DNA from: Escherichia phage FL20
Sequence record: PP400781
Length of the DNA: 64,000 bases
Strand: one strand, 5' to 3'
Below the pieces are notes generated by a model, which was not told where the DNA came from, made no database searches, and saw nothing but the letters and a program-made list of their open reading frames with translations. A program made the position numbers and the translations under genes. Of this stretch, positions 27,592 through 54,465 are shown piece by piece (within the stretch, counting starts at the first letter, position 1; every line of letters starts with the position of its first letter).

Positions 27592-28412
27592 TTAGTCACC
27601 TCACCGAAAATTGTAAATTGTCTACGATTCTCATCGCCGAAAGATTCTACTACGTCGTTTACCTTGACGCAAGTCCCGCGCGGTAAAATTACTTCACATT
27701 CGCAAGGATTCCATGCAATTGACCCAACAACAAAACCTTTATGATCTTTTACGTCAATTACCCATGATACATTACAAGAATGTTGCATCTTTCCGGTCAT
27801 TGATTCATATCGATTCTCACAATAAAGGCTAGTGCTGTTTGATAGCCATCCTCCAAAGATGATCGGTGTCATGCTGGTAGATACAAAGTTTTTAAAGGTA
27901 AACTCCTTATATTCAATGATACGCTCTATTGTCTGAATGTCAAGATGTTGACCGCGATAAAGAGTACCGTTTAACTTTTCGGTTTTATCCATGACGCAAT
28001 CCATCAAATCGACAATCTCTGATATCTCATCGGTCATGTCTTCTTCCCCTAAGAGAGCACCATTTACCCATTCGTATTGTTCAGATACATAATCACAGAT
28101 TGCATTATATTCTGCTGGTGTTATGTTGTTATGTTTGTAATGTTTGAATACATTATCTCCAAAGTCTTCGGAGTGTACTTCATACATCACATTAATGATT
28201 TTCTTGACAAATCCATAATCTTGTGTCTCACGCTCAAGGAAGCGGATAACCTTCACATAATCATCAAAGTTAATCTGATCACTGATCATCTCAGTGATCA
28301 TGTAACCATTAATCCCCTCAATGTCATATGTTTCGATGTAATTATCCATACGTTCCATCATTGATTCGCGTGATTCTTCTGAAATACGAAAATCCTGTAA
28401 TTTCTTGAACAT
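27588..28412 (-). CDS. ADP-ribosyltransferase, Alt/Mod-family paralog (274 aa)
   Basis: R-S-ExE catalytic signature: LYRGQ ... FKNFVSTS ... CECEVILPRG, parallel to the Alt C-terminal domain encoded just upstream. Confidence 0.7.
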   Translation of the reverse strand: MFKKLQDFRISEESRESMMERMDNYIETYDIEGINGYMITEMISDQINFDDYVKVIRFLERETQDYGFVKKIINVMYEVHSEDFGDNVFKHYKHNNITPAEYNAICDYVSEQYEWVNGALLGEEDMTDEISEIVDLMDCVMDKTEKLNGTLYRGQHLDIQTIERIIEYKEFTFKNFVSTSMTPIIFGGWLSNSTSLYCENRYESMTGKMQHSCNVSWVIDVKDHKGFVVGSIAWNPCECEVILPRGTCVKVNDVVESFGDENRRQFTIFGEVTK

Positions 28413-28433
28413 TTTAAGCCTCCCATATAACAG

Positions 28434-28462
28434 AAAACGGGGCTAGTATAAAACTAGTCCCC
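28434..28462 (-). other. stem-loop between alt and the Alt-like gene (approximate)
   Basis: Imperfect inverted repeat ggggctag/ctag-t-cccc. Confidence 0.35.
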
Positions 28463-28490
28463 GTTTGAGTCAACCATTATTTCTTAAAAA

Positions 28491-30610: not shown

Positions 30611-30823
30611 TTATAATGCACCATCGAGCAATTGCTCTAAGGTGTATCCTGAATAGTCTTTTTCAATCAGGATATATTTTCCTACTCGTTTAATACAACC
30701 GCGCATTTCAACGTATTCTGCGTAGTTGATGGTGCGAGTTGTTCCATCTTCCAGTAATGCAGTACCGATTTCGTTAATGCGGTCATAAGTTACGTCGGTA
30801 ATGATGATTTCGATGTTAGCCAT
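30611..30823 (-). CDS. hypothetical protein (70 aa), PeSL-driven
   Basis: ORF directly downstream of a PeSL cassette with GGAG RBS. Confidence 0.55.
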   Translation of the reverse strand: MANIEIIITDVTYDRINEIGTALLEDGTTRTINYAEYVEMRGCIKRVGKYILIEKDYSGYTLEQLLDGAL

Positions 30824-30894
30824 TTGATACTCCTTAGTAGTTCGTTTCGGTATGAGTGTATTATGATATACACCATCTGTTATGTCAACAACTT
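30824..30894 (-). promoter_or_regulatory. PeSL-type early promoter cassette copy 1 (-35 TTGACA, 17-bp spacer, -10 element, about 22-nt leader, GGAGNA RBS)
   Basis: Read on minus strand: TTGACA ...17 bp... CATAAT ... GGAGTATCAAATG; short palindrome overlaps the -10. Confidence 0.7.
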
Positions 30895-31074
30895 TTAGAA
30901 CATTTTTGAAATTAATTCTGCTTTGATTTCGCAGAGAACATCTAAAGATTTCTCGTCACCCGCTTTTGCTGCTTCTGCTTGCATTTTTGAAATGGCTTCA
31001 ATGTCAGTGCAATTATAAGCCGCTTGAACTTTAGCTATTGCGATGATTGCCGATTCGATGGTTAAGTGTTTCAT
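30895..31074 (-). CDS. small hypothetical protein (59 aa), PeSL-driven
   Basis: ATG at 31074 placed via the plus-strand track ORF frame; RBS GGAGAA; N-terminus MKHLTIESAI. Confidence 0.45.
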   Translation of the reverse strand: MKHLTIESAIIAIAKVQAAYNCTDIEAISKMQAEAAKAGDEKSLDVLCEIKAELISKMF

Positions 31075-31143
31075 GTTTGATTCTCCTTTCGTTTCGGTAT
31101 GTGTGCATTATAGGGGATCACCGATCCCCCTGTCAACAATTTT
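31075..31143 (-). promoter_or_regulatory. PeSL cassette copy 2 with GGGGATC-N3-GATCCCC palindrome in the promoter spacer
   Basis: Minus strand: TTGACA-aGGGGATCggtGATCCCC-TATAAT ... GGAGAA-N6-ATG. Confidence 0.75.
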
Positions 31144-31662
31144 TTAGTTATTTTTTAATTGCTCATCTTGCAATAGGGCAATCACATGCTGGCGATGTTC
31201 TTCCGATTGAGGCACACCGAAAAAGTTTGTTTTGTAGAAATACTCTAATCGGTCTTCTCGTGTGCTCTCTTCCATCATGATCGCGGGTAGTCCGAGATTT
31301 CGGAAACGTCGCTTTTCTGCTGGCGTAAAATCACTGTAATACAACATAGAATCATCATTACAAGCAATGCTAAACTCATCCTTCATAAAGGAGAATATTG
31401 CGTTTAAACGCTGTTTACCGTCCACGATTTCGATCTCATAGCGAGAGCCATCATCAATCTTAGCCATTGCGATAGCACCAACCGGAAAATCATTAATCAG
31501 GTTTTCGATAAACATACGTTTGTTTTCGGTGTCCCATACTAAAGGACGCTGATAATCTGGGTTCATGTTGATATAGCCATCTTCTAACCATGCATCATAA
31601 ACAGAGATGACAAAGTTTTTAGTATTGGTATAGTAACGGCGTTTAGGCGTTAAACGGTTCAT
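31144..31662 (-). CDS. DUF262 / ParB-like (GmrSD N-terminal domain-like) protein
   Basis: Track ORF 31144-31698; Met13 start (RBS AGGAG) gives 172 aa; motifs YQRPLVW...LI..FPVG and the DGQQR-type box IVDGKQRL. Confidence 0.7.
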   Translation of the reverse strand: MNRLTPKRRYYTNTKNFVISVYDAWLEDGYINMNPDYQRPLVWDTENKRMFIENLINDFPVGAIAMAKIDDGSRYEIEIVDGKQRLNAIFSFMKDEFSIACNDDSMLYYSDFTPAEKRRFRNLGLPAIMMEESTREDRLEYFYKTNFFGVPQSEEHRQHVIALLQDEQLKNN

Positions 31663-31663
31663 G

Positions 31664-31996
31664 TTATAGTCTCCTGAATGGATCATCACGTAAATCAATA
31701 TCTTTTAAGAACTCATCCCATGAATGCCGGATATTGTTCTTAATTCTCCAGATAAGCGCAGGGATTGAACGCTCTCCCATCTGGAAGTATGGATCATATG
31801 ATCCGTATGCCCAATATGCTACTACAATTCCACAATCAGCGCAATAGTATTCTATTTCACTTGCTGGCGACCAAAGTCCATCAATATGATCGGTGATCTT
31901 GCTTTCGATGTTATGGCTATGACAATCAGGGCAACGGATGCAATGACCTTGTTTATCGTAATTTGACGTTAGCGAATACTTAAACAATCTCATCAT
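31664..31996 (-). CDS. zinc-ribbon protein (two CxxC pairs)
   Basis: 110 aa; CIRCPDC ... CADCG; translationally coupled within the operon. Confidence 0.6.
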   Translation of the reverse strand: MMRLFKYSLTSNYDKQGHCIRCPDCHSHNIESKITDHIDGLWSPASEIEYYCADCGIVVAYWAYGSYDPYFQMGERSIPALIWRIKNNIRHSWDEFLKDIDLRDDPFRRL

Positions 31997-32709
31997 AGAT
32001 CCTTATTTGCTTCAAATACTGCCTTTGCGAATCCTCGCGGGGTAAGTGACCTGATAGTCTTTGTTTTCGTTCCTTTCCCGCCTAGCTTAGAATGCTGTTT
32101 ACTGTACCCTTTATTAATCTGCAAAGGTTTCTTTTCTGGCATTATAAAGCCTTGTCCGGTCCATAAGCAAGTCTTTTTTGGGTACATATCACGGGCGGCA
32201 ATATACTCAGGAAACGTAGGATGCTTATCATCTTCCGGCAAATAACCGCCATATTCCCACGGATGGAACATATAATCAGGCTTACGCCACATGCTAGAGA
32301 TAACGCTTACAGGATTCTCTATCATGTAGGGAACTCCTAGCCATTCACCCAAATAAGCGGTTATTTTAGCTGCCCTTACATCATGAACTTGAATCAATGG
32401 TCCTTGTTCTAGTTTCTTTCGTTCAAAGTGCGCAGCGCCACTAACAGCTAAATTGGTGCACGGTGGGAATGCAAAGATAATATCCGGTTTCCCCCATTCA
32501 AGGTCCATTGCTCTTTCCAGCCAATTCAAATCAATCCAGGTGTTTACATAGGTAATGTTTTGATGTTCAAATCGGGTATTATATTTTTTGTATGTACCGT
32601 GGTCGCCATCATCAGCATTAAAGCAGATCACCTTATGACCTGCTTTAGCCCATTCTAGCCCCATTATCCCCGATCCGTCAAAGTTGCAGAATATTAATTT
32701 TTGTTTCAT
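31993..32709 (-). CDS. C5-cytosine methyltransferase catalytic core lacking a target-recognition domain (238 aa)
   Basis: Motif I-like FCNFDGSGIMGLEWAKAG, motif IV FAFPPCTNLAVSG (Pro-Cys catalytic dipeptide), motif VI MIENP, motif IX-like TIRSLTPRGFAKAV; too short for a canonical enzyme with TRD. Confidence 0.6.
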   Translation of the reverse strand: MKQKLIFCNFDGSGIMGLEWAKAGHKVICFNADDGDHGTYKKYNTRFEHQNITYVNTWIDLNWLERAMDLEWGKPDIIFAFPPCTNLAVSGAAHFERKKLEQGPLIQVHDVRAAKITAYLGEWLGVPYMIENPVSVISSMWRKPDYMFHPWEYGGYLPEDDKHPTFPEYIAARDMYPKKTCLWTGQGFIMPEKKPLQINKGYSKQHSKLGGKGTKTKTIRSLTPRGFAKAVFEANKDL

Positions 32710-32951
32710 ATACGACCCTTTAACCCAGCACAGATTTTAGTCGGTTCTTTACCGTGCCACATTAAGTAAAGTCCGTTAATGCGACCTTGTTTTGTGTGTG
32801 ATTCTTTTCTGATCTTCTTATAGTGTCGTGCTTCCTCAACCGATTGTTTAGAATACCAATCATAAAGGAAGAGGAACAAAGGCCAGCCATTAGCGACCTT
32901 AATACAGTTATTCAAAAATTCCTTATTTCGTTTAATTAATTTTCTTTTCAC
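32706..32951 (-). CDS. hypothetical basic protein (81 aa)
   Basis: ORF with 4-bp overlaps to both neighbours in the operon. Confidence 0.5.
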   Translation of the reverse strand: MKRKLIKRNKEFLNNCIKVANGWPLFLFLYDWYSKQSVEEARHYKKIRKESHTKQGRINGLYLMWHGKEPTKICAGLKGRI

Positions 32952-33199
32952 GCTGCCCCCATTGGTTTGATAGTAACAGAATCTAAAAGACCTTTGTTAG
33001 CCAGTTCGCGGCAAGTTTTCAGATCCGCAACTTCCCAGCCAGCCGCAATCAGGTTATCAATCAGGCTGTTAGCAACTTCTTCGCTCATGAAAGAGCACTG
33101 TTTGCCGATGGTGTAGCGCACACGCTGTAATTTCAGTTTACGGAAGCCTTTAACGTTCAGGTCTTTAGCGATTTTCTTTGCGGTTTCGATGTTAGCCAT
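32948..33199 (-). CDS. hypothetical protein (83 aa), first gene of the PeSL-driven operon
   Basis: ORF immediately downstream of PeSL copy 3. Confidence 0.55.
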   Translation of the reverse strand: MANIETAKKIAKDLNVKGFRKLKLQRVRYTIGKQCSFMSEEVANSLIDNLIAAGWEVADLKTCRELANKGLLDSVTIKPMGAA

Positions 33200-33280
33200 T
33201 GTTTGATTCTCCTAAGTGGTATCTCGTCTTGATGGTTGTATTGTAGGGGAGTTATCCTCCCCTGTCAACACTTTTTATAA
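33200..33280 (-). promoter_or_regulatory. PeSL cassette copy 3 (palindrome ggggag-ttatc-ctcccc in spacer)
   Basis: Minus strand: TTGACA-GGGGAGgataaCTCCCC-TACAAT ... GGAGAA ... ATG. Confidence 0.75.
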
Positions 33281-33315
33281 AATTATTTGTTAATTTCTGG
33301 TGCGTTGCTAGGATA

Positions 33316-33450
33316 TTAACCTTCTTTAACTCCGAGGTATTTCGCAACCATCCCTACAATCTTCTGTGCTACTACAATGTCAAATTTCAGATAATCTTCG
33401 CCGTGGGTTTCAATGATATATGCTTCACATGCTGCTTTAGTCTCGAACAT
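33316..33450 (-). CDS. small protein (44 aa), nonsense-truncated paralog of ORF 36566-36733 (approximate ends)
   Basis: MFETKAACEAYIIETHGEDYLKFDIVVAQKIVGMVAKYLGVKEG; the paralog continues ...YYPSNAPEINK, and here that tail is still readable after a TAC to TAA change. Confidence 0.45.
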   Translation of the reverse strand: MFETKAACEAYIIETHGEDYLKFDIVVAQKIVGMVAKYLGVKEG

Positions 33451-33526
33451 TTTTATTCTCCTATTTCGTTTCGTTATGTGTGTATTATAGGGGATCTCCC
33501 GATCCCCGTCAACAACTTTTTTAAAA
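33451..33526 (-). promoter_or_regulatory. PeSL cassette copy 4 (GGGGATCtcccGATCCCC palindrome)
   Basis: As copy 2; -35 variant TTGACG. Confidence 0.7.
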
Positions 33527-33808
33527 TTATTCGTGATTAGTTTCGATGTTGTGCATTTTGCACCAGTTCAGCCAATCACCCAGATCCTGATAGTTAATTC
33601 TTTTATCTGCTGCCATCGTTTTTGTCTTGATACCCATATGTGCGTTATGAGTAAGCATTTTTACAGTGAACTCAATTTTATCACCTTTAGCTTTAACATC
33701 AACCAGTTTGGTCCACTGGCTACCAGCTCCGCGAATGTTCATACCAACGATGTTTCCGATGTATGCTTCTTTGTTTTTCAGGATTTCGGTTGCTTTGATG
33801 AATTTCAT
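33527..33808 (-). CDS. hypothetical protein (93 aa), PeSL-driven
   Basis: ORF directly after PeSL copy 5. Confidence 0.55.
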   Translation of the reverse strand: MKFIKATEILKNKEAYIGNIVGMNIRGAGSQWTKLVDVKAKGDKIEFTVKMLTHNAHMGIKTKTMAADKRINYQDLGDWLNWCKMHNIETNHE

Positions 33809-33878
33809 TTTTGATTCTCCAGTTCGTTTCGGTATGTGTGTATTATGCTATGTTCTTACTTTGGTGTCAACAACTTTT
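33809..33878 (-). promoter_or_regulatory. PeSL cassette copy 5
   Basis: Conserved -35/-10/leader/RBS layout on minus strand. Confidence 0.65.
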
Positions 33879-34148
33879 TTAGATATTTTCAGAAATAAAT
33901 TTTAAAACTTGACGTAAATGTTTCTCATCTTTGATAGTCGCCGGAAGTTCTTCTTTTACTTCCTGTGCAAGATAGATATTTCCGTTCCAAGTGAAAGATC
34001 CGTCTTCGTTTACGCGATAGCTGAACATCCACTCGCAATCATTTTCGATTTCATATACACACAGAAGGGTGTAATCGTTAAAGCTATTGATTTCAAGGTC
34101 GAAGCCGTGACGTTTTGCAAAGTTGGTAGTGGTTTTAGTCAGCGCCAT
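33879..34148 (-). CDS. hypothetical protein (89 aa), PeSL-driven
   Basis: ORF directly after PeSL copy 6. Confidence 0.55.
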   Translation of the reverse strand: MALTKTTTNFAKRHGFDLEINSFNDYTLLCVYEIENDCEWMFSYRVNEDGSFTWNGNIYLAQEVKEELPATIKDEKHLRQVLKFISENI

Positions 34149-34225
34149 TGTTTGATTCTCCTAAGTGGTATCTCGTTTCGATGGGTGTATTATGCTATAG
34201 GCGTGATCTGGTGTCAACAACTTTT
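34149..34225 (-). promoter_or_regulatory. PeSL cassette copy 6
   Basis: Conserved cassette layout. Confidence 0.65.
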
Positions 34226-34242
34226 TTAAAATTTTATGCAAT

Positions 34243-34267
34243 AAAAAAGCCGACACTAAGGTCGGCT
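34243..34267 (-). terminator. rho-independent terminator after gene 34275-34583 (approximate)
   Basis: Stem agccgac/gtcggct with T-tract on minus strand. Confidence 0.6.
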
Positions 34268-34274
34268 AATAAAA

Positions 34275-34583
34275 TCATTTAGACAAATAATCATTCAGTG
34301 CAATCCGGTTGGCGTATGCTGGTGTTACGTCAATCGCAATCACTTTAACGCGTGCTTTCTTGCGACCTGGGTTTTCTCGTAACCAGTGCTCATGACCGTG
34401 AACATTTTTATACTGCGATGCTTCTTCGAAGGTACGGATCGGACCTGGATAATCTGCGTAAAGGATCTCTAGGTCTTCGGTGATGTAAAAATATACATCA
34501 TAATTACTGTTCTCTAGTTTAAGCAGAGACTTTCGGAACATTGGGAGATTTTCGCGGGTAAATTCAAAGATATTATCTTTCAT
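34275..34583 (-). CDS. small early protein, HxHW-family member a (102 aa)
   Basis: C-terminal motif HGHEHW ... VKVIAIDV shared with five paralogs. Confidence 0.6.
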   Translation of the reverse strand: MKDNIFEFTRENLPMFRKSLLKLENSNYDVYFYITEDLEILYADYPGPIRTFEEASQYKNVHGHEHWLRENPGRKKARVKVIAIDVTPAYANRIALNDYLSK

Positions 34584-34636
34584 AGTATTATCCTCAATAG
34601 TTGGATGAAAAGGGGTGGGGCTTAACGCCCCGTATA

Positions 34637-34924
34637 TTAAAACAGTCCTTCCTGTACACCGTAGTAGAGTTCATCGCTGATAATTTCATTAATGCGACGG
34701 TGTGCATATTCCTGATTTGCGAAGTTATCAGCAAGTTCTACTTTAGTTTCGCCGTCATGAGTCCATTTAGTGATAACTTTACCATCTGCAAATTTGAAGT
34801 TGAACTCTTTAGCTACCGCATCGCGTACCAGACGTGCGAACTTGTTGTTACGGATTGCATTATCGGTTTCGTGTGCAGCGTGAGCGAATTTGTTAACTTT
34901 CAGAGTGATAGTAATGTATGCCAT
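34637..34924 (-). CDS. hypothetical protein (95 aa), PeSL-driven
   Basis: ORF directly after PeSL copy 7. Confidence 0.55.
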   Translation of the reverse strand: MAYITITLKVNKFAHAAHETDNAIRNNKFARLVRDAVAKEFNFKFADGKVITKWTHDGETKVELADNFANQEYAHRRINEIISDELYYGVQEGLF

Positions 34925-35005
34925 AATTTGATTCTCCTAGTTAGAAAGTGTATCTCGTTTCGATGGGGATATTATGCTATACACCCGATCTTATGTCAAC
35001 ACTTT
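34925..35005 (-). promoter_or_regulatory. PeSL cassette copy 7
   Basis: Conserved cassette layout. Confidence 0.65.
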
Positions 35006-35284
35006 TTATAAAATAATTTTTTGATATTTTTCTATGATGTTTGTGTAGGTCACGTCAACCGCTAGCACCGTTGCTTCGAATCCACCGTTTAACCAATGGC
35101 TATGATCATGATCGTGAAAGAAACCTAGACCAGTACGAAGACCTTCTTTATATTCGGCGCGTACATTTAGATCATCATCGATAAACAGATAAAACCATGA
35201 ATTTTTACTAGGATTGATGATACAACCTTTCAGATTAGGGAGAATATCACGACTAAGAATAAACTTATCACCTACTTTGAGCAT
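35006..35284 (-). CDS. small early protein, HxHW-family member b (92 aa from Met31)
   Basis: Track ORF 35006-35374; internal ATG with RBS GAGGAA; motif HDHDHSHW ... TVLAVDV. Confidence 0.55.
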   Translation of the reverse strand: MLKVGDKFILSRDILPNLKGCIINPSKNSWFYLFIDDDLNVRAEYKEGLRTGLGFFHDHDHSHWLNGGFEATVLAVDVTYTNIIEKYQKIIL

Positions 35285-35298
35285 AATATTTTCCTCAC

Positions 35299-35607
35299 TT
35301 ATAAAGTTTGACCGTTGTTTTTCGCGTAATGCTGAATGCGTGCTTGATCTGCTTCCGCTGGTGATAGATTCCATGCAACCACTACAACTTCTGACGCATC
35401 GTCATCCGTTTTTGATACCCAATGATTGTGATTCATACAGTTATTTGCTATCGAGTGAGAAAATGATTGCGTCACTGGAGACGTATAATCATAGTAACGG
35501 ATTTTCAGATTTTCATCAACGTACAAGTAGATCGTATACGGCTTATATTCAGTAACCAGTAACAGACAGTTACGCAATTCTGGGAAAATCTTTTTAGTTA
35601 ATTTCAT
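35299..35607 (-). CDS. small early protein, HxHW-family member c (about 102 aa from Met28)
   Basis: Track ORF 35299-35688; motif NHNHW ... VVVVAWN. Confidence 0.55.
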   Translation of the reverse strand: MKLTKKIFPELRNCLLLVTEYKPYTIYLYVDENLKIRYYDYTSPVTQSFSHSIANNCMNHNHWVSKTDDDASEVVVVAWNLSPAEADQARIQHYAKNNGQTL

Positions 35608-35608
35608 T

Positions 35609-35848
35609 TTATAATCCTCGGTCGCGGCTATAGTACACGGTACGCCATACAATTTCATGTTTCGTGTCGCTCCAGCACACGATCTCATTTACTCTTAAAT
35701 CTTTGTTATCAACAAAAGATGAACATTGTGACGCTTCTTTCATCATTTTATCTGCTGTTTTCTCATCAAATACAGCACAGATTTCTTTATACACTCGATA
35801 ATCTTTGAATTGACTCTGAATACCCATAATTAACACCATTCCAACCAA
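35609..35848 (-). CDS. hypothetical protein, member 1 of a two-gene paralog pair
   Basis: Shares block FK.YK.Y ... A.KMM.(E/D)AS.C.SF with ORF 35787-36050; start uncertain. Confidence 0.5.
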   Translation of the reverse strand: MVGMVLIMGIQSQFKDYRVYKEICAVFDEKTADKMMKEASQCSSFVDNKDLRVNEIVCWSDTKHEIVWRTVYYSRDRGL

Positions 35849-36050
35849 TTGTTTTTGAGAAAACGTTTATCCACTGTTGAGTGTAGCATGTTTCTTTCCA
35901 TGATACAATACGAGTAGAATAATGGTTTTTGTTTCCAGAAAAGGACGGGCATTTTGATGCATCTTCCATCATCTTTTCGGCGAACTCTGGTGCGTATACT
36001 CGCAGGATCTGTTGATATGCTTTGTATTCTTTAAATTTGCTCATAATCAT
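35787..36050 (-). CDS. hypothetical protein, member 2 of the paralog pair
   Basis: See ORF 35609-35848. Confidence 0.5.
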   Translation of the reverse strand: MIMSKFKEYKAYQQILRVYAPEFAEKMMEDASKCPSFSGNKNHYSTRIVSWKETCYTQQWINVFSKTIGWNGVNYGYSESIQRLSSV

Positions 36051-36309
36051 TCACTACCTTATCAGCTTCTTTTGTTGTTTTTACATCAACTGCGATAACT
36101 CGTAAAGGTTCGTCATGGTTCCACCAGTGGTCATGAATATCAGCTTGTGATTTATCACAAAAGGAATCACGAATATCATTTTTACATTTATAGCTAATGT
36201 GACCGTCATAGTCAACATAAAGGTAATTATCGAAAATCGGCGTTTTTAAGATCATACCGAAAAATCTTTCTTTGTGTGTCTTATCCAGTGTTGCAGTAAT
36301 TCGCATCAT
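36031..36309 (-). CDS. small early protein, HxHW-family member d (92 aa)
   Basis: Motif IHDHWW ... LRVIAVDV. Confidence 0.6.
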   Translation of the reverse strand: MMRITATLDKTHKERFFGMILKTPIFDNYLYVDYDGHISYKCKNDIRDSFCDKSQADIHDHWWNHDEPLRVIAVDVKTTKEADKVVNDYEQI

Positions 36310-36321
36310 AATATATTCCTC

Positions 36322-36501
36322 TTAGAAAGGGATGGTCATTTCTTGAGCTTGTACATTCTCGTTAGGATTAAACTTCATCCAGCCGATATTGTCTACCAGC
36401 ATATGCACATTTTTATCATATCCTACGTGGGTAGTCAATACTGTATGTGCTTTACCTTCAATGATGAGTTCCATGTACTTCTGAACTTCGATAGCTTTCA
36501 T
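36322..36501 (-). CDS. small hypothetical protein (59 aa), PeSL-driven
   Basis: Ends placed via the plus-strand track ORF frame; RBS GGAGAA; N-terminus MKAIEVQKYM. Confidence 0.45.
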   Translation of the reverse strand: MKAIEVQKYMELIIEGKAHTVLTTHVGYDKNVHMLVDNIGWMKFNPNENVQAQEMTIPF

Positions 36502-36565
36502 TTTGATTCTCCGTTTGTTGTCTTGATGGGAGTATCTTACTACTCCCTTTAATCATTGTCAACTA
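36502..36565 (-). promoter_or_regulatory. PeSL cassette copy 8 (palindrome gggagta-tcttac-tactccc spanning the -10)
   Basis: Conserved cassette layout. Confidence 0.7.
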
Positions 36566-36733
36566 TTATTTGTTAATTTCCGGTGCGTTGCTCGGATAGT
36601 AACCTTCTTTAACACCTAGATATTTTGCAACCATTCCGGTGATCTTCTGTGCTACTACGATATCGAATTTCAGGTAGTCTTCACCGTGGTTTGCTACAAT
36701 GTATGCTTCGCATTCTGCTTTAGTCTCGAACAT
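36566..36733 (-). CDS. small protein (55 aa), intact paralog of ORF 33316-33450
   Basis: Track ORF 36566-36769; true start is Met13 (MFETKAECEAY...); the upstream 12 codons are PeSL sequence read in frame. Confidence 0.55.
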   Translation of the reverse strand: MFETKAECEAYIVANHGEDYLKFDIVVAQKITGMVAKYLGVKEGYYPSNAPEINK

Positions 36734-36803
36734 TTTTGATTCTCCTATATCTCGTTGGTATGTGTGCATTATAGGGGATCACCGATCCCCTGTCAACAAC
36801 TTT
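36734..36803 (-). promoter_or_regulatory. PeSL cassette copy 9 (GGGGATCaccGATCCCC palindrome)
   Basis: As copy 2. Confidence 0.75.
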
Positions 36804-37106
36804 TTATTCTTCGTCTTTATCTTTATATGCGTATTTCATAAATTTGTCTGCTACTTCGTCCGCGTTTTCAGGTTCTACATCTGACGCTAGGACAACAGCT
36901 AGTTCGGTTTTGTCGTTTCCATCATACCAATGATTATGAGTGTCTTTTTCTTCGATATAAAACGAATCATTTGGAGTTGGGCGACAATATACGTCTAAAT
37001 TCCCATCGATATAAAAGATCCAATCCGAATACAAAATGATTGTTTTAGCCAGATTTTTATTGTCTCTTACAAAAGGTTCCGCGACAAATAGCTTAGTTTG
37101 TTCCAT
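36804..37106 (-). CDS. small early protein, HxHW-family member e (100 aa from Met20)
   Basis: Track ORF 36804-37163; motif THNHW ... LAVVLASDV. Confidence 0.55.
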   Translation of the reverse strand: MEQTKLFVAEPFVRDNKNLAKTIILYSDWIFYIDGNLDVYCRPTPNDSFYIEEKDTHNHWYDGNDKTELAVVLASDVEPENADEVADKFMKYAYKDKDEE

Positions 37107-37122
37107 AGTAATTTCCTCAAAA

Positions 37123-37314
37123 TTATACAGCTTCGTAAACTTCCCAATGTCCAACACCAGCACGCTTAACGAAAAGGTTTTCTTTGATGTTATTCATAAA
37201 CGTCTGGATGGATTTAATGCGGTTGGAAGGTTTCCAGTCTTCGTTGGCATTGCGGCGATACATCATAACATTACCAGTTCGCTTATATTCAGCAACCATT
37301 TTAAGACCACACAT
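37123..37314 (-). CDS. hypothetical protein (63 aa)
   Basis: ORF with RBS GAGGA 7 nt upstream of the start. Confidence 0.5.
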   Translation of the reverse strand: MCGLKMVAEYKRTGNVMMYRRNANEDWKPSNRIKSIQTFMNNIKENLFVKRAGVGHWEVYEAV

Positions 37315-37370
37315 AATATTATCCTCAATTTGTGGGAGAGTATTACCCTCCCGATTATTGTTATACTACA

Positions 37371-37691
37371 TTACGCAAAATGGCGTGTCAATGCTTCTTT
37401 TGCTGTTCCGCTAAGATTCTCGATCTCTCCTGGCATAACATCAACCGCAAGAACTTCTACAACATCCTCTGATCCTAACCAGTGAGTATGACCTTTGTAG
37501 AACTTGATAACCAGACTACCTTCCTCATCCCATTTAACGCTATCGCTAGCCCACCACACATCACCGTCGATAAAGTTGATGTAAAGCACACTACGCCACA
37601 TTGAATCGGTTACTTTCAATATTGCGCCTTTCATCTCTTCCACGGTGTGGTCTTCCATTTTGAAGACCTCGCCTACTTGAACTTTTGCCAT
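37371..37691 (-). CDS. small early protein, HxHW-family member f (106 aa from Met31)
   Basis: Track ORF 37371-37781; motif GHTHW ... VEVLAVDV. Confidence 0.55.
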   Translation of the reverse strand: MAKVQVGEVFKMEDHTVEEMKGAILKVTDSMWRSVLYINFIDGDVWWASDSVKWDEEGSLVIKFYKGHTHWLGSEDVVEVLAVDVMPGEIENLSGTAKEALTRHFA

Positions 37692-37692
37692 G

Positions 37693-37959
37693 TTACATGC
37701 TCCGAATATGTTTAGCTGCATCTTCCAGTTCGTCGATAGTGACACTGTGTGCCAGTAAGTGTACTGGTTGTGGTTCTTCACCTTCCATAGTATTGATCAG
37801 ATGACCGTTTCCTGGGTGGAATGTATCGTTGCCGTTCCAAATAGCATACACATCATCTTCTGTTACGTAGATAATAAGTCCAATCGGTGATTCTGGTAAT
37901 TGAAAAATTTTACCCACTGCATCTTTGCGATTGTCTACGATATCTTTTACTGTCTTCAT
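37693..37959 (-). CDS. hypothetical protein (88 aa)
   Basis: ORF tightly packed upstream of member f. Confidence 0.5.
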   Translation of the reverse strand: MKTVKDIVDNRKDAVGKIFQLPESPIGLIIYVTEDDVYAIWNGNDTFHPGNGHLINTMEGEEPQPVHLLAHSVTIDELEDAAKHIRSM

Positions 37960-37978
37960 TTAGTTACCTCTCGTTAAA

Positions 37979-38158
37979 TTACATCACAATCACGCCAGCC
38001 GTAGAAAGTTGATGTTTCAACTGAGCATTTTCTGCTACCGTCAAATCAATGATTTCTTGTGACGCTGCAATCATATAACCATTGGTGATATTGTTTTGCA
38101 TCAGTTCAATGGTTTCTTCGTTGTAGCGGATTTTAGCGATGATTTCGTTGAAGTTCAT
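37979..38158 (-). CDS. small hypothetical protein (59 aa from Met23), PeSL-driven
   Basis: Track ORF 37979-38224; the first 22 codons are PeSL sequence (same artefact as at 36769). Confidence 0.5.
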   Translation of the reverse strand: MNFNEIIAKIRYNEETIELMQNNITNGYMIAASQEIIDLTVAENAQLKHQLSTAGVIVM

Positions 38159-38234
38159 TTTTGATTCTCCTAGTTCGTTTCGGTATGTGTGTATTATAGG
38201 GGATCGGTGATCCCCTGTCAACAACTTTTCTGAA
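38159..38234 (-). promoter_or_regulatory. PeSL cassette copy 10 (GGGGATCggtGATCCCC palindrome)
   Basis: As copy 2. Confidence 0.75.
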
Positions 38235-38711
38235 TTATTTTTCTTGATGCTCGCGCTCGTACTTTTCGAAATAAAATTCTACTGGCTGGTCATGAATTGA
38301 CAGCAAGCCAAAGCGTTTAGCCGCTCGCAATCCCATATTGCGCTGAATGTACTTCTGGAAGTTCTCGCGTATACACTTACGCCAGTATTCTAAGCCCATA
38401 CAGCTTTTATAAAGATTGCATTGCACACACGCCGGATTCATGTTATCAAGTATATCATGCTCCGGTTTATGCATTCCTACAACCTTATACTTCCACGATC
38501 CATCATCATTACGGGCAATTCGTCCATTTTCATCATAGACTACCTTTGAGCGTCGCAATACTGGTTTGATGTGGTCTGCGTGCCAGCGATCCCCTAGTTC
38601 CTCGCCACAATAGGCGCAACGTCCACCATATTTCATTTTCAGGATCTGGCGTTGCTCTTTCTTTGACAATTTTTTAGGTTTAGGGGCTTTCGCCCCTTCA
38701 TTATCACACAT
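38235..38711 (-). CDS. HNH homing endonuclease
   Basis: 158 aa; CAYCGEEL ... HADHIKP ... N ... CVQCN (Cys-x2-Cys / His-Asp-His / Cys-x2-Cys HNH signature); inserted next to the ligase gene. Confidence 0.7.
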   Translation of the reverse strand: MCDNEGAKAPKPKKLSKKEQRQILKMKYGGRCAYCGEELGDRWHADHIKPVLRRSKVVYDENGRIARNDDGSWKYKVVGMHKPEHDILDNMNPACVQCNLYKSCMGLEYWRKCIRENFQKYIQRNMGLRAAKRFGLLSIHDQPVEFYFEKYEREHQEK

Positions 38712-46233: not shown

Positions 46234-46632
46234 TTAACTTTCCAGAATATCGCGAGCTTCGTTACGCTCCTTGATGATTTTCAGGACAAATTCCAGTTTT
46301 TCTTTGTTCAGTGTTCCGTTTTCCATTGCTTCTTTGACGGTAAACACTCCGCCACCTTGCCCGTATACAGTGACAGTGATTTCACCTAACATCGTGGTAT
46401 GAAAACCGCCAATTTTCGGTGATTCGAAAGAAACAATTACCTCGCGAACAGTATTACCGTCGTTGATTTCTGAGAGGGTAATGTCGTTTTTGTAGGCGGT
46501 TGCTTTAACCATACGGATCAGCATAGTCTGATCTGGGGAGATGGTCATTTTGTCCATTGCATGTTGCAATGCAGCGTAACCGAAAACTTTAACGAAGTCC
46601 AGAACATCTTTGCGAGTTTGAAATTTAATCAT
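46234..46632 (-). CDS. hypothetical protein (132 aa), PeSL-driven
   Basis: ORF directly after PeSL copy 11. Confidence 0.55.
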   Translation of the reverse strand: MIKFQTRKDVLDFVKVFGYAALQHAMDKMTISPDQTMLIRMVKATAYKNDITLSEINDGNTVREVIVSFESPKIGGFHTTMLGEITVTVYGQGGGVFTVKEAMENGTLNKEKLEFVLKIIKERNEARDILES

Positions 46633-46702
46633 CTTGGTACTCCTTAGTTGTTTTGGTGTGGGAGTATCTTACTACTCCCGTGATATGCTGTCAACTGCTT
46701 TT
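46633..46702 (-). promoter_or_regulatory. PeSL cassette copy 11
   Basis: Conserved layout; palindrome gggagta...tactccc. Confidence 0.7.
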
Positions 46703-46852
46703 TTATGCAACCGCAAACATCAACATTTGAACATTCTTGGCTGTCTGGCTTTCAAAGTTCTGACATTCTTTGATAATGTCCTCTACTTTCTCGCCGGAGA
46801 TCTCCGCGTAAGTTTCGATTGCCATTTTCAGTACCGAGTCAAAGTTGTTCAT
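46703..46852 (-). CDS. small hypothetical protein (49 aa), PeSL-driven
   Basis: Ends placed via the plus-strand track ORF 46634-46897 frame; RBS GGAGAA; N-terminus MNNFDSVLKM. Confidence 0.45.
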   Translation of the reverse strand: MNNFDSVLKMAIETYAEISGEKVEDIIKECQNFESQTAKNVQMLMFAVA

Positions 46853-46919
46853 TTGATTCTCCTTAAAGTTTATTTCGTTTCGATGGGGGTATATTAATAC
46901 CCCCGTTATTCAGTGTCAA
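46853..46919 (-). promoter_or_regulatory. PeSL cassette copy 12 (palindrome gggggtatat-taataccccc)
   Basis: Conserved layout. Confidence 0.7.
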
Positions 46920-47138
46920 CTACTTTTTAATGACAATTTCGAATTTTGCTACCTTGCGTCCTCGTTTATTGAAAGCAACCCACGGACGGTTTTCAATATA
47001 GAACAATTCTTCGCCAATAATGAATACTGGCTGATTGTAAAGGCGACCCATCAGGTCACGCTGGCGAATGGTAGTAGATTCGTATACTTCGCCTACTACA
47101 AAGTGTTTGCTGATAGAGTCGGTGCAAGTAAATTTCAT
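46920..47138 (-). CDS. hypothetical protein (72 aa), PeSL-driven
   Basis: ORF directly after PeSL copy 13. Confidence 0.55.
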   Translation of the reverse strand: MKFTCTDSISKHFVVGEVYESTTIRQRDLMGRLYNQPVFIIGEELFYIENRPWVAFNKRGRKVAKFEIVIKK

Positions 47139-47207
47139 TTTGATTCTCCTTTGTTTCGTTTCGATGGGAGTATCTTACTACCCCCGTTATTCAGTGTCAA
47201 CTACTTT
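47139..47207 (-). promoter_or_regulatory. PeSL cassette copy 13
   Basis: Conserved layout. Confidence 0.7.
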
Positions 47208-47426
47208 TTACTTGTTGTATTCATTCCACCATTTGGTGAGCTTATCAATTATTTTTGTGTTTCTATCCAACTTCTCCCACCGTTTTCTAGGGTTTATCAA
47301 CCGGAATAGGTAAGGTGTACTTGTTAAGTGAACTCGGTCAATGTAGTGATTGATGTACTGTTTTTCGATTCTAAGTTTCATCTTTTTACGATGAAAATAT
47401 GCAATGACTTGTTCTTCTGTTTCCAT
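47208..47426 (-). CDS. hypothetical protein (72 aa from Met19), PeSL-driven
   Basis: Track ORF 47208-47480; upstream codons are PeSL sequence; RBS GGAGGAACAT before the ATG. Confidence 0.5.
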   Translation of the reverse strand: METEEQVIAYFHRKKMKLRIEKQYINHYIDRVHLTSTPYLFRLINPRKRWEKLDRNTKIIDKLTKWWNEYNK

Positions 47427-47490
47427 ATGTTCCTCCGTTTCGATGTGTATTATGCTATGGCAAGATCCTATTGTCAACACCCAATAACAA
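47427..47490 (-). promoter_or_regulatory. PeSL cassette copy 14
   Basis: Conserved layout. Confidence 0.65.
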
Positions 47491-47513
47491 AAAAGTCGCC
47501 ACTATGGGCGACT
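47488..47513 (-). terminator. rho-independent terminator after the HAD phosphatase gene (approximate)
   Basis: Stem agtcgcc/ggcgact with T-tract on minus strand. Confidence 0.6.
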
Positions 47514-47524
47514 TTGAACAAACA

Positions 47525-49341: not shown

Positions 49342-49506
49342 TATCCGACAACCTCAAAACATTTATCATCAGGAAGAATCGCCCATTCTACACCATATTC
49401 ATCCTCGACGTAGTCAAGTCCCATCATGTCGAGCATCATATTCATCACCAACAACAAAGCTATCAGCTAGTTCAAAATCTACAGCAACACATTTTAATTT
49501 GGTCAT

Positions 49507-49574
49507 AATAAAATCCTCACTTGTTTTTGATGGTTGTATTATAGCGGGGATTTCTCCCCGCGTCAACACTTATT
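49507..49574 (-). promoter_or_regulatory. PeSL cassette copy 15 (palindrome gcgggga-tttc-tccccgc)
   Basis: Conserved layout immediately downstream of nrdA. Confidence 0.65.
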
Positions 49575-51818
49575 TTACAGCTTGCAAGATGAGCACTCGC
49601 TAGCGTCTTCCGTACCATCTGCACCGTCGCGAACGTTCGCATAATACAGGGTTTTCAGACCGTAATGTTGAGCGAACAACATATCATCTAACACATCAGC
49701 AATATCGACTTTACCAGTCTTATAAGTGCTTGGATCATAGGATGTATTGGAACTAATCGCCTGATCTACAAACTTCTGCATGATCGCTGCCAGTGTCAGA
49801 TAGGGCTTGTTACCTTTCTTGATCAGTGTCCAAAGCAGGTCAATAACATCAGCATTATTCTCTACGTTCGGAATAACCTGATTAAATTGCCCTTCTTTCG
49901 ATCCTTTAACCGATACAATCCCGCGAGGTGGTTCAATACCGTTTGTGCTGTTAGACACCTGAGAAGATGACTCACAAGGCATCAGCGCCGAAAGCGTACT
50001 GTTACGAATGCCATATTTTTTCAGGTCTTCGCGCAGTTCTTCCCAATCCATCTCATACACCGGATCAACCAGTTCATCTACTGTCTTTTTGTACCAGTCG
50101 ATAGGCAGTTCACCGCGACCATAACGTGTTTCATGCATCAGTTCGCAAGCACCCTTCTCTTTAGCCAGTTGCACACTAGCCTTAATCAGAGCATATTGCA
50201 AGCGTTCAAACGTTTTATGCGTAAACTCGCTAGCGTCTTCATATGTGAAGAAATTATCTGCTAGATATGATGCAAAGTTAGTCACACCAACACCCAGAGA
50301 GCGACGTTTTTTGGCTGTCAGAGCTTGTTCTACAGGATAATCCTGATAATCTAACAGGTTGTCCAGTGCACGCACCATAACCATAGCAATGCGTTCTACT
50401 TCTTCCATATTTTCGATATCAAAGTTTCCTAAAACATATGCTGCCAAAGTACATAGGCTGATCTCTGAATCATCACGACCCATCGGTTTTGTAGGCAGAG
50501 CAATTTCACAACACAGGTTAGATTGTTTAATCGGTGCTACATTACGAATAAACGCCCCGTGATTGTTCATGTTGTCTGTGAACGTTGGGTAGATTCGACC
50601 AGTGTTAAAACGTTCAATTGCCACCGCTAAAAACAGGTCTTCGGCTTTAACACGAGTTTTACGAACACTCGGATCTTTTTCCAGTTTTTCGTAAAGTTGG
50701 CGGAAACCTTCCTCGTCTCGGAAGTACAGATCCCACAACAAGCCACCCGCAACATCTGGACTAAACAGAGTAATGTAATCCCGTTTAAGGAATCGCTCTA
50801 CCATCAGGTTATTAATCTGTACGCCGTAGTCAAGATGGCGAATGCGGTTATCTTCCACGCCCTTATTGTTCTTTAACACAATCAGACTTTCAAACTCTAA
50901 ATGCCACATTGGGTAATAGAGTGTCGCTGCCCCGCCACGAATACCGCCTTGTGAGCATGACTTAACGGCAGTCTGAAAATGTTTCCAGAATGGGATAACT
51001 CCAGTATGACGAACTTCACCATGCCCGATCTTAGATCCTTCCGCGCGAATCATGCCAGCGTTGATACCGATACCAGCACGCTTGCTAATATACTTGATGA
51101 TTGCATTTGCGGTTTCATTAATACCCTGCAATGAGTCATCACTTTCAATCACCACACACGAACTAAATTGGCGTGTTGGGGTACGCACACCTGCCATAAT
51201 CGGAGTAGGCAGAGAGATTTGCTTATTCGCAACCGCATTATAAAAATCAATCACATGTTCAAGTCGATTTTCTGTCTCTTCTTGATGCAAGCACATACCG
51301 ATCAGCATATACGCAAATTGCGGTGTTTCGATGATTTTCTTAGTGCTGCGATCTTGAACAAGATATTTCTCTTTTAACTGCATCGCACCAGCATAGGTCA
51401 TTTTAAAATCAAGTTTATGGTCGATGAATTTCTCCAGATATTCCACTTCTTCACGGGAATACTTTTGCAGAATTTCGCGATCATATTTTCCGGTTGCAAT
51501 ATTACGCTCAATATGGCTGTAAAAATCAATCGGTTGGAATTGACCGTATACTGATTTGCGAAGCGCGAACATTGCAAGGTTACTTGCTACATATTGATAA
51601 TCGGGTGTTTCTACAGTAATGTTATCTGCTGCGACCTTAATCAATACTTTCTGGATATCGTTGGTAGACATACCTTCTGTCAGAAGTGGTTCAACCATAT
51701 CAAACAATTCATATGGATCAACGTTATGACCTTCGGCTGCCGCTTCCAGAATTTTCATTACTTTTTCTTTTTCAAAAGGAACAGTCAGACCGGAAGACTT
51801 AACAACATTTTTAATCAT
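49575..51818 (-). CDS. nrdA: ribonucleotide reductase large (alpha) subunit
   Basis: 747 aa; ATP-cone N-terminus, catalytic Cys context, C-terminal CSSCKL-type tail; synteny. Confidence 0.93.
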   Translation of the reverse strand: MIKNVVKSSGLTVPFEKEKVMKILEAAAEGHNVDPYELFDMVEPLLTEGMSTNDIQKVLIKVAADNITVETPDYQYVASNLAMFALRKSVYGQFQPIDFYSHIERNIATGKYDREILQKYSREEVEYLEKFIDHKLDFKMTYAGAMQLKEKYLVQDRSTKKIIETPQFAYMLIGMCLHQEETENRLEHVIDFYNAVANKQISLPTPIMAGVRTPTRQFSSCVVIESDDSLQGINETANAIIKYISKRAGIGINAGMIRAEGSKIGHGEVRHTGVIPFWKHFQTAVKSCSQGGIRGGAATLYYPMWHLEFESLIVLKNNKGVEDNRIRHLDYGVQINNLMVERFLKRDYITLFSPDVAGGLLWDLYFRDEEGFRQLYEKLEKDPSVRKTRVKAEDLFLAVAIERFNTGRIYPTFTDNMNNHGAFIRNVAPIKQSNLCCEIALPTKPMGRDDSEISLCTLAAYVLGNFDIENMEEVERIAMVMVRALDNLLDYQDYPVEQALTAKKRRSLGVGVTNFASYLADNFFTYEDASEFTHKTFERLQYALIKASVQLAKEKGACELMHETRYGRGELPIDWYKKTVDELVDPVYEMDWEELREDLKKYGIRNSTLSALMPCESSSQVSNSTNGIEPPRGIVSVKGSKEGQFNQVIPNVENNADVIDLLWTLIKKGNKPYLTLAAIMQKFVDQAISSNTSYDPSTYKTGKVDIADVLDDMLFAQHYGLKTLYYANVRDGADGTEDASECSSCKL

Positions 51819-54050: not shown

Positions 54051-54380
54051 TCAAACCAGCTTGAGATAGTTTTCGTTAACGTTTTCTTCTGTGATCTCGG
54101 TTTTAAACTCATTACCAACATCAGGAGAAACATAATAGCGTTCGGAATAATCACGCCACATTTTCAGTAGGCTGACACCAACATTAACACCATTTTCCCA
54201 GAAACGGAAGATAATTTTATTTGCGGTGTAGCGGTAATCGCTTTGAATCAAGCTGCCATCACCGCGACGTGATTCATAAACCGTAATACATTCACGGTTA
54301 GCGGCTTTAAGACATTCTTCAATAGTGCCGCATGAGATAATTTCGGTTGAGTCGTTTACGATTTGTTCTACAGTCCACAT
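54051..54380 (-). CDS. hypothetical protein (109 aa), PeSL-driven
   Basis: ORF directly after PeSL copy 16. Confidence 0.55.
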   Translation of the reverse strand: MWTVEQIVNDSTEIISCGTIEECLKAANRECITVYESRRGDGSLIQSDYRYTANKIIFRFWENGVNVGVSLLKMWRDYSERYYVSPDVGNEFKTEITEENVNENYLKLV

Positions 54381-54450
54381 AATATAATCCTCTCTTTGTT
54401 TCGATGTGTGTATTATACATTACCACATCAGCATGTCAACACCTTTTTCA
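54381..54450 (-). promoter_or_regulatory. PeSL cassette copy 16
   Basis: Conserved layout. Confidence 0.65.
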
Positions 54451-54465
54451 TAAAATTTTAGTCAA

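Follow-up and report, generated by a model that had tools for sequence, protein, structure and literature searches.

The 64,000-nucleotide stretch of the Escherichia phage FL20 genome analyzed here (record PP400781; "the window" means this whole stretch) carries on its minus strand a family of intergenic cassettes that combine an early-type promoter with, in nearly all copies, a stem-loop. We consider it about 90% probable that these are the promoter-early-stem-loop (PeSL) cassettes of an RB49/phi1-type T4-like coliphage of the genus Krischvirus, working as modules that unite promoter, terminator and recombination homology. The evidence from the window comprises the sequence anatomy of the cassettes, their orthology to named PeSLs, junctions of insertions and deletions (indels) that fall inside them, and compensatory evolution of their stems. 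Promoter strength, termination by one cassette of the spacer class, the 5' ends of RB49 early transcripts and excised mini-circles have been shown in the literature on orthologous or paralogous cassettes. PeSLs were defined in phages phi1 and RB49 by Arbiol et al. (2010, Genome Biol Evol 2:140; PMC2839356). The window cassettes belong to this original family, in its original genus and at its original locus, and because PeSLs were described in 2010 in the same phage group and the same genome region, the finding is already known.

Cassette anatomy and copy number

An earlier note on this DNA, made from the letters alone, had claimed at least ten cassettes between 30824 and 38234 and six more at 46.6-47.5, 49.5 and 54.4 kb. 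Listing TTGAC[AG] on both strands, together with a regular expression for the full layout, we find 11 in the block, all on the minus strand, and six beyond it at exactly those places. Each is designated here by the start of its -35 hexamer: 30888, 31136, 33268, 33512, 33870, 34217, 34999, 36562, 36796, 37391 (atypical) and 38221 within the block, and 46694, 46919, 47200, 47477, 49566 and 54439 beyond it, likewise on the minus strand. In the region read from 30.7 to 38.4 kb they are the recurring intergenic unit between short, early-type minus-strand genes. The 17 cassettes, and one further element of the same type, are as follows (open reading frames, ORFs, are numbered as in phi1/RB49; energies are predicted).

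30821..30900, minus strand: PeSL before the ORF185 ortholog (30611-30823); TTGACA-17-CATAAT; weakened stem over the -10 (GTGTAT..ATACAC), -7.3 kcal/mol against -12.1 for the consensus; relatives have a perfect GGGTGTAT/ATACACCC stem
31072..31148, minus strand: PeSL before the ORF186 ortholog; TTGACA-18-TATAAT; spacer hairpin GGGGGATC-ggt-GATCCCC with two GATC, -13.0 kcal/mol
33197..33280, minus strand: PeSL before a five-gene module (31144-33199; orthologs of ORF190 to ORF187); TTGACA-17-TACAAT; spacer hairpin GGGGAG-gataa-CTCCCC, -13.6 kcal/mol
33448..33531, minus strand: PeSL "193/191" before the truncated ORF191 ortholog; TTGACG-17-TATAAT; hairpin (G)GGGATC-ggga-GATCCCC with two GATC
33806..33882, minus strand: cassette before the ORF193 ortholog; TTGACA-17-CATAAT; canonical leader; no stem-loop detectable by folding (z=+1.6) or stem search
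34146..34267, minus strand: PeSL before the ORF194 ortholog; canonical terminator AGCCGAC-cttagt-GTCGGCT-TTTTT (34267-34248), then TTGACA-17-CATAAT
34922..35011, minus strand: PeSL before the ORF198 ortholog; TTGACA-17-CATAAT; hybrid, mismatched stem over the -10 (GGGTGTAT..ATATCCCC)
36499..36574, minus strand: PeSL before a six-gene module (ORF204 to ORF199 orthologs); TTGACA-17-TAAGAT; hairpin GGGAGTA-gtaaga-TACTCCC over the -10, -11.9 kcal/mol
36731..36808, minus strand: PeSL "206/205" before the ORF205 ortholog (36566-36733); TTGACA-17-TATAAT; hairpin GGGGATC-ggt-GATCCCC with two GATC
37312..37403, minus strand: atypical cassette that extends into the 3' end of the ORF208 ortholog; TTGACA-17-TAGTAT; the hairpin GGGAGGGT-aat-ACTCTCCC (-12.5 kcal/mol) follows the -10 and precedes the Shine-Dalgarno of the ORF207 ortholog; no promoter annotated at the orthologous site in the GEC-3S record
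38156..38248, minus strand: PeSL "212/209", a chimeric single cassette; TTGACA-17-TATAAT; hairpin GGGGATC-acc-GATCCCC with two GATC
46630..46706, minus strand: PeSL of the hyperplastic region between denA and nrdB (around phi1 ORF225-229); TTGACA-17-TAAGAT; GGGAGTA..TACTCCC over the -10
46850..46931, minus strand: PeSL; TTGACA-17-TAATAT; hairpin GGGGGTAT-taat-ATACCCCC, -14.6 kcal/mol
47136..47212, minus strand: PeSL; TTGACA-17-TAAGAT; hairpin GGGGGTA..TACTCCC with one G.U pair, -11.0 kcal/mol
47424..47520, minus strand: PeSL; upstream terminator AAAGTCGCC-catagt-GGCGACTTT-TTT (-13.1 kcal/mol), then TTGACA-17-CATAAT
49504..49578, minus strand: PeSL before the ORF233-231/nrdB module; TTGACG-17-TATAAT; spacer hairpin GCGGGGA-gaaa-TCCCCGC, -15.1 kcal/mol
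54378..54503, minus strand: PeSL before the ORF240 ortholog; terminator AAGCCTTCC-ttcg-GGGAGGCTT-TTTT, then TTGACA-16-TATAAT
28410..28485, minus strand: further PeSL-type element (28473) shortly after alt; TTGACT-17-TATACT; over its -10 the hairpin AACGGGGCT..AGCCCCGTT (z=-4.3), conserved in relatives

The common layout leads from an A-rich tract through GTTGACA, a spacer of 16-18 bp and a -10 hexamer to the leader ACAC(A/C)CAT(AC)CGAAACGA and then (A)GGAGAA-N5-7-ATG. Its earlier description as TTGACA, a 17-bp spacer, a -10, a leader and GGAGAA-N6-ATG stands overall; cassette 31136, however, has an 18-bp spacer and cassette 54439 one of 16 bp, and the -35 hexamer, said to be TTGACA in every copy, is TTGACG in two. 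The -10 hexamer also varies, reading CATAAT in five copies and TAAGAT in three.

The pattern TTGAC-N18-TANNNT occurs 23 times against 3.5 expected, a count reached by none of 100 shuffles. The minus strand holds 29 sites with at least 11 of 12 matches to TTGACA/TATAAT and the plus strand 2, compared with about 3 on both strands summed in Markov surrogates; nine of the block copies match the promoter hexamers at 11-12 of 12 positions, and the cassettes account for all of the top-scoring sites in a consensus promoter scan. The enrichment is confined to this high-scoring class: a looser consensus scan yields 41 promoters overall where 35.2 are expected, which is no excess. A repeat search made independently recovers the cassette family as repeats D1-D5, with up to 10 copies.

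Aligning 16 copies with MAFFT, as the earlier note had suggested, shows homology that reaches beyond the promoter hexamers. Conserved columns include the upstream A-tract and the G before TTGACA, CAT..C.A... in the leader, the GGAG Shine-Dalgarno and ATCAAA; alignment and repeat search agree that AGGAGAATCAAA before the ATG is common to the cassettes. The AT-rich tract upstream of the -35 has the consensus AAAAAGTTG before TTGACA, and a TAA, the stop of the preceding gene, lies within ~5-25 nt of it. One might instead suppose that independent strong promoters and ribosome-binding sites had converged on the host consensus, with neither a common origin nor a role in recombination, and the -35, -10 and Shine-Dalgarno are indeed the most conserved columns. 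Yet parts that owe nothing to that consensus are conserved as well (the leader ACACACATACCGAAACGA, ATCAAA before the ATG, AAAAAGTTG upstream), the same stem types recur in several cassettes, and the chimeric cassettes and the duplicated cassettes flanking indels described below already contradict convergence, which we regard as scarcely credible.

Correspondence with the PeSLs of phi1 and RB49

By megablast, 63 records of Krischvirus-type coliphages, RB49, phi1 and GEC-3S among them, match at 93-98% identity. Comparison with GEC-3S, G2494, phi1 and RB49 shows one-to-one synteny of the block with phi1/RB49 ORF185-212, which make up the hyperplastic region from alt to gene 30, and the GEC-3S record annotates promoters at orthologous sites. 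As published, a PeSL unites an AT-rich region holding the stop codon of the preceding gene with a near-perfect sigma-70 promoter, a stem-loop, and the Shine-Dalgarno and start codon of the next gene; the stem-loop is often polyG/polyC and occupies one of five positions, which define five subclasses, and each genome has ~52 PeSLs, mostly in hyperplastic regions upstream of ORFans (PMC2839356). The window cassettes likewise end at their 3' side with the Shine-Dalgarno and start codon of the downstream gene, lie in hyperplastic regions mostly upstream of ORFans (3 of the 8 block proteins tested have Pfam domains), and are orthologous to named phi1/RB49 PeSLs. Their identification as PeSLs in the earlier note is thus borne out: genus, region and anatomy are all those of the elements in PMC2839356.

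Orthologous and paralogous cassettes have been studied experimentally. When PeSL193/192 and PeSL206/205 were cloned as promoter reporters, most clones gained -35 or -10 mutations, and a wild-type PeSL206/205 clone gave ~13,000 Miller units (PMC2839356); cassette 36796 is the ortholog of this tested phi1 PeSL206/205. The stem-loop of PeSL211/210 in a lacZ construct cut downstream expression as much as rrnB T1 did (PMC2839356). The window has no copy of the RB49 cassette used in that terminator test. Inverse polymerase chain reaction revealed mini-circles with ORF192 or ORF210 (PMC2839356), and the consensus of RB49 early promoters is stated to fit the 5' ends mapped for early transcripts (PMC1524935). 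We infer that every copy in the window is active.

An Rfam scan of the 64-kb window at the gathering threshold and a tRNA scan gave no match. The exact motif of the spacer class matches only two contigs in IMG/VR, both of 150-165 kb, so that at exact-motif stringency this database gives no sign of spread outside Krischvirus-like genomes.

Stem-loops and evidence for selection on pairing

Stem-loops are present in 16 of the 17 cassettes, two of them weakened, and all five published positional subclasses are represented. The hairpin occupies the promoter spacer in six (31136, 33268, 33512, 36796, 38221 and 49566), lies over the -10 in four as a strong stem (36562, 46694, 46919, 47200) and in two in weakened form (30888, 34999), and is a canonical terminator upstream of the -35 in three (34217, 47477, 54439). 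Folding and a stem search confirm that the GC palindromes in the spacer or over the -10 vary in sequence while their pairing is kept. A perfect GC-rich stem of at least 6 bp occurs in 10 of the 17 cassettes, compared with 4.6% of 100-nt segments drawn at random from the window (binomial P ~6e-10). Predicted energies stay at approximately -11 to -15 kcal/mol irrespective of stem sequence or position, and the spacer-class hairpins are predicted to be at least as stable as the RB49 PeSL211/210 stem-loop (-10.1 kcal/mol).

From this pattern the earlier note had argued for selection on the hairpin itself, and compensatory changes between orthologs and between paralogs support the argument. Orthologs were compared across nine genomes, the window and eight relatives. 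The PeSL before ORF198 exists as two perfect 8-bp stem alleles, GGGTGTAT/ATACACCC and GGGGATAT/ATATCCCC, two double-sided changes apart and of similar predicted energy (-13.8 and -14.3 kcal/mol). Orthologs of the ORF209 PeSL (38221) carry either GGGGATC/GATCCCC or GGGGAG/CTCCCC, and the stem at 33268 is identical in all nine genomes save for a one-base change of G/C run length in three. Paralogs form a compensatory series: GGGAGTA/TACTCCC (36562, 46694), GGGGGTA/TACTCCC with a G.U pair (47200) and GGGGGTAT/ATACCCCC (46919). The terminator regions of 34217 and 54439 are 76% identical (repeat D9), with common flanks and stem interiors that differ yet remain complementary. Pairing of the arms persists while the loops differ freely (acc, ggt, gcc, aca, atc, ggga, cacgt, gataa, gttaaa), and the variants containing G.U favor a structure at the RNA level. 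These are direct comparisons of pairs, used because 5' arms shifted by one base, or 18-bp spacers, left several 5' arms out of register when 14 distinct spacer-class sequences were aligned for formal covariation analysis, which was set aside.

At 34999 the window itself has a hybrid of the two ORF198 alleles, in which the 5' arm GGGTGTAT of one is mismatched to the 3' arm ATATCCCC of the other (-7.5 kcal/mol). Only two adjacent bases (34968-34967) belong to the second allele, and on either side of the stem the sequence is like that of FL37 and Delraymugoa; a long crossover between the allele groups is unsupported. The sequence fits a short conversion patch and a dinucleotide change equally well.

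The loop of PeSL206/205 presents a second small rearrangement. It reads ggt in the window (36768-36796) and acc, its exact reverse complement, in Delraymugoa, the ~80-nt cassette being otherwise identical, and each orientation recurs at several cassettes, orthologs and paralogs alike. We take this to suggest either inversion of the palindrome or very short gene conversion between cassettes. The acc and ggt forms are what inversion of a DNA palindrome would yield, and they can be counted in favor of a rival reading, in which the GC palindromes act not as RNA hairpins but as DNA sites bound or cleaved by a dimeric protein, such as a repressor of early promoters or a recombination or cruciform-processing enzyme. 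The commonest form, a perfect 17-bp palindrome whose place is precisely the promoter spacer in four window cassettes and in many orthologs, would suit such a site, the original authors had speculated on GGGG...CCCC as a protein target (PMC2839356), and an HNH endonuclease gene (38235-38711) adjoins the array. However, gene conversion from a paralogous cassette explains the loop flip equally well, the upstream-class copies are ordinary intrinsic terminators, and the G.T/G.U variants (47200, the phi1 ORF191 PeSL and the RB49 ORF186 PeSL) suit RNA pairing better than a sequence-specific DNA site. Because stem sequence and stem position both vary while pairing and predicted energy are kept, we find a DNA-level protein site quite improbable. 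A related idea, to which we give only slightly more credence, is that the stem-loops are processed in DNA as extruded palindromes or cruciforms, PeSL shuffling then being active and targeted to the structure, for instance by endonuclease VII or the adjacent HNH-type enzyme. The inverted 206/205 loop, the coexistence of both loop orientations and the arm switch at 34999, which falls exactly at the loop, are hints in its direction.

A promoterless stem-loop, GGGGC-gttaa-GCCCC, also occurs twice, at 34620-34634 between the ORF198 and ORF197 orthologs and at 30589-30603 after the ORF185 ortholog. Judged by sequence and setting, both copies look like stand-alone terminators or attenuators within, or at the end of, modules.

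GATC sites in the stems

Exactly four cassettes (31136, 33512, 36796, 38221) have two GATC sites in the stem, the number given by the earlier note. Paired sites of this kind could make the promoters sensitive to Dam methylation and switch them between parental and replicated DNA. The 35-nt promoter cores of the 17 cassettes hold 11 GATC where ~3.3 would be expected from the density of the window, and GATC starts at spacer position 4-5 in 7 of the 17 cassettes, three of which have no palindrome. But the four stems with paired GATC are all copies of a single type and so are not independent, other stem types have no GATC, and across the window the sequence is neither enriched nor avoided (observed/expected 1.04). 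It is also lost in orthologs (SFHK24 at two cassettes, RB49 ORF186, phi1 ORF191 and the cacgt allele), and the methyltransferase-like gene of the block has C5-type rather than Dam-type motifs and no Pfam hit. Control of the cassettes through GATC is therefore unsupported and, in our estimation, very improbable. In a side version of the cruciform idea above, the GATC at a fixed spacer offset may report methylation-dependent control.

Indels and probable recombination footprints

Cargo was compared between cassettes, as the earlier note had proposed, by aligning 28.0-40.4 kb of the window to the eight relatives with BLAST. There are four indel loci, three of which lie within 50 bp of a cassette -35. 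The first, at 33526-33531, is in the AT-rich upstream edge of cassette 33512, where RB49 and G2494 carry 529-537 bp more (ORF192); here the window is in the phi1 state, the case drawn in figure 3 of PMC2839356. The second is at cassette 34217, where RB49 carries ~400 bp more (ORF195/196), and window positions 34170-34266 align twice in RB49, once on each side of the ORF195/196 segment. The third is at cassette 38221: phi1, GEC-3S and ELT4 have ORF210, RB49, G2494, FL37 and Delraymugoa have ORF210 and ORF211, and both genes are absent from the window, an "empty" site.

The single window cassettes at 34217 and 38221 align to both of the cassettes that flank the extra DNA of the relatives, with overlaps of 56-97 bp. 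Explicit alignment shows 38221 to be a chimera whose upstream half matches phi1 PeSL212/210 and whose downstream half matches PeSL210/209, which is the structure expected, from sequence, of the product left by excision of an ORF210 mini-circle. Of the 40 records listed for a junction query (58 match in all), at least 10 have the empty topology, and most of the others have the state with ORF210 or with ORF210/211.

One further exchange appears to have copied a cassette together with its gene. The ORF191 ortholog (33316-33450) is 88.6% identical to the paralogous ORF205 ortholog (36566-36733), and because each stands behind a GATC-palindrome cassette, we read the pair as a duplicated cassette-plus-gene module, 3.3 kb apart (repeat D6). 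The ORF191 copy is truncated by a TAA nonsense codon to 44 aa; it is 55 aa in relatives.

We take the duplicated or chimeric cassettes at these junctions to be a specific signature of recombination. Cassette recombination, rather than selection for viable intergenic junctions, would then be the cause of the indels, as we infer from these junction sequences. For comparison, 10 of 14 indels were associated with PeSLs in the original study (PMC2839356).

Proposed mechanism and points against it

Each cassette, ~80-100 bp long, begins with an A-rich, UP-like tract, usually with the stop codon of the upstream gene, followed by a near-consensus host sigma-70 promoter that would be used immediately after infection, and then by a conserved, unstructured A/C-rich leader and a strong AGGAGAA Shine-Dalgarno. 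Since the transcript of the cassette itself would start downstream of at least the 5' arm, the hairpin would form only in RNA read through from the upstream module. There it would attenuate or terminate transcription, or at least mark the 3' end, so that each single gene or operon is insulated as a module. Spread over the hyperplastic regions, about 50 near-identical cassettes would offer ~45-100 bp of dispersed homology to the very active homologous recombination of the phage, and unequal exchange between two of them could delete a module (as a mini-circle), insert it, duplicate it or swap it, with promoter and terminator left working.

Several observations weigh against this reading. The spacer-class and over-the--10 hairpins are followed by no U-tract, the sequence there being TATAAT or ATCGAA instead. 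In a consensus terminator scan of 28300-40400, only 34267-34248 and 30603-30589 qualify among minus-strand intergenic positions; the upstream hairpins of 47477 and 54439 lie beyond that interval, and their T-runs were read directly from the sequence. The terminator role of hairpins lacking a U-tract rests on one published reporter construct. The hairpin also appears to be dispensable at least locally, because 33870 has no stem and those of 30888 and 34999 are degraded (approximately -7.5 kcal/mol). As to recombination, most of the intergenic space in the block is cassette sequence, so viable junctions would fall in cassettes anyway and cassette location alone is weak evidence. The fourth indel, a 261-bp gene of 88 aa (37693-37959), is shared by the window and G2494 and missing from the other seven of the nine genomes; it is inserted between the orthologs of ORF209 and ORF208, overlapping by 6 bp, and no cassette flanks it. 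Because this insertion has no cassette, not every indel can be PeSL-mediated.

The absence, from most hairpins, of the U-run that intrinsic terminators need would be accommodated if they were instead stabilizers of the upstream mRNA 3' end, processing barriers or RNase sites, insulation being post-transcriptional and involving no termination. The hairpins do lie 20-40 nt past the upstream stop codon, and mRNA processing is extensive in the T4 family, one example being RegB cleavage at GGAG (PMC3014915), a sequence that every cassette has in its Shine-Dalgarno. The lacZ construct with PeSL211/210, as repressive as rrnB T1 (PMC2839356), speaks for termination, although in that assay processing or decay would look the same. 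Processing without termination seems to us unlikely, and we retain the promoter-terminator-homology module as the preferred explanation.

Neighboring genes and other observations

Several genes between the cassettes are paralogs. Among the tandem ORFans at 34275-37691, the orthologs of ORF197, 199, 200, 203 and 208 form one family with an H-x-H-W motif; the ORF206 ortholog has the motif and no BLAST match to that family at E<1e-3. The orthologs of ORF201 and ORF202 are a second family, 40% identical.

The five-gene module at 31144-33199 encodes a C5-methyltransferase-like protein (31993-32709; FxGxG and PPC motifs), for which Pfam gives no match and whose relatives are annotated as DNA methyltransferase or Dcm, together with a zinc-ribbon protein and a protein with a GmrSD_N/DUF262 domain (31144-31662, E=6e-20). 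An unexplained cytosine-modification pathway has been reported in the Krischvirus phage SAP (a 2026 paper, PMC13390438), to which the genes of this module might be relevant.

Over the whole window, the 4-bp palindrome GGCC is strongly under-represented (21 observed, 66 expected; 0.32), AGCT (0.64), GTAC (0.71) and GCGC (0.76) are moderately low, and GATC (1.04) is neutral. The deficits of GGCC and the other palindromes may reflect restriction avoidance.

Two more consensus promoters, both TTGACA-16-TATAAT on the minus strand, lie in the virion-gene region at 13726-13760 and 14297-14360, and most of the conserved leader is missing from them. Just upstream of the promoter at 14325, directly after a hoc-like Ig-repeat gene (14373-15587), is a canonical terminator, CAGCCATCC-ttcg-GGGTGGCTTTTTTT. 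PeSLs adjoining hoc are mentioned in PMC2839356.

Relation to known systems and significance

Set beside the PeSLs of phi1 and RB49 (PMC2839356), the window cassettes share the genus, the alt-to-gene 30 region, orthologous sites, the TTGACA-N17-TATAAT core, the AT-rich tract, the five stem-loop positions, the 3' Shine-Dalgarno and ATG, and the ORFan indels at ORF192 and ORF210. Differences are at the level of alleles only: the window equals phi1 at ORF192, has an empty ORF210/211 state found in neither phi1 nor RB49, and carries the flipped PeSL206/205 loop, the degraded stems of two cassettes and the truncated ORF191. The PeSL/PmSL elements of T4/PST and KVP40/nt-1 (Comeau, Arbiol & Krisch 2014, PMC4122927) embody the same idea of a composite promoter-terminator associated with indels in hyperplastic regions. 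Their promoters differ, however (TTTACW..TAYWAT and TTGYVH..TAWWAT, or Mot boxes), and their stem-loops are upstream of the promoter and more AT-rich, making them analogs of the window cassettes and not homologs (PMC4122927). Lambdoid morons (Hendrix et al. 2000), as summarized in PMC2839356, are likewise single accessory genes with their own promoter and terminator; in that summary their flanks do not belong to a dispersed family of homologous repeats and are not considered to promote their own movement, whereas the flanks in the window are one repeat family with junctions inside it. Integron cassettes, an analogy drawn by the original authors (PMC2839356), are also arrays of small mobile ORFs with associated promoters and circular intermediates. 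They differ in that no integrase or attC-type site is known for PeSLs, whose exchange is thought to be general homologous recombination.

Another Krischvirus genome with PeSLs adds nothing conceptually. The small new points (a genus-wide ORF210 polymorphism with a chimeric empty-site cassette, compensatory stems, a loop inversion and a hybrid stem) fit the published PeSL model and do not extend it in kind. At one cassette-bounded site the ORF210 or ORF210/211 cargo is absent, single or double, and the empty site has the predicted chimeric cassette; the compensatory stem changes, for their part, support selection on the hairpin, which was asserted but not analyzed in PMC2839356. Few concrete mechanisms have been proposed for the Botstein-type modular evolution of large lytic phages; PeSLs, as self-contained promoter-terminator linkers that double as recombination sites, offer one of them, and the comparison with dozens of Krischvirus genomes sequenced after 2010 lends this model modest support.

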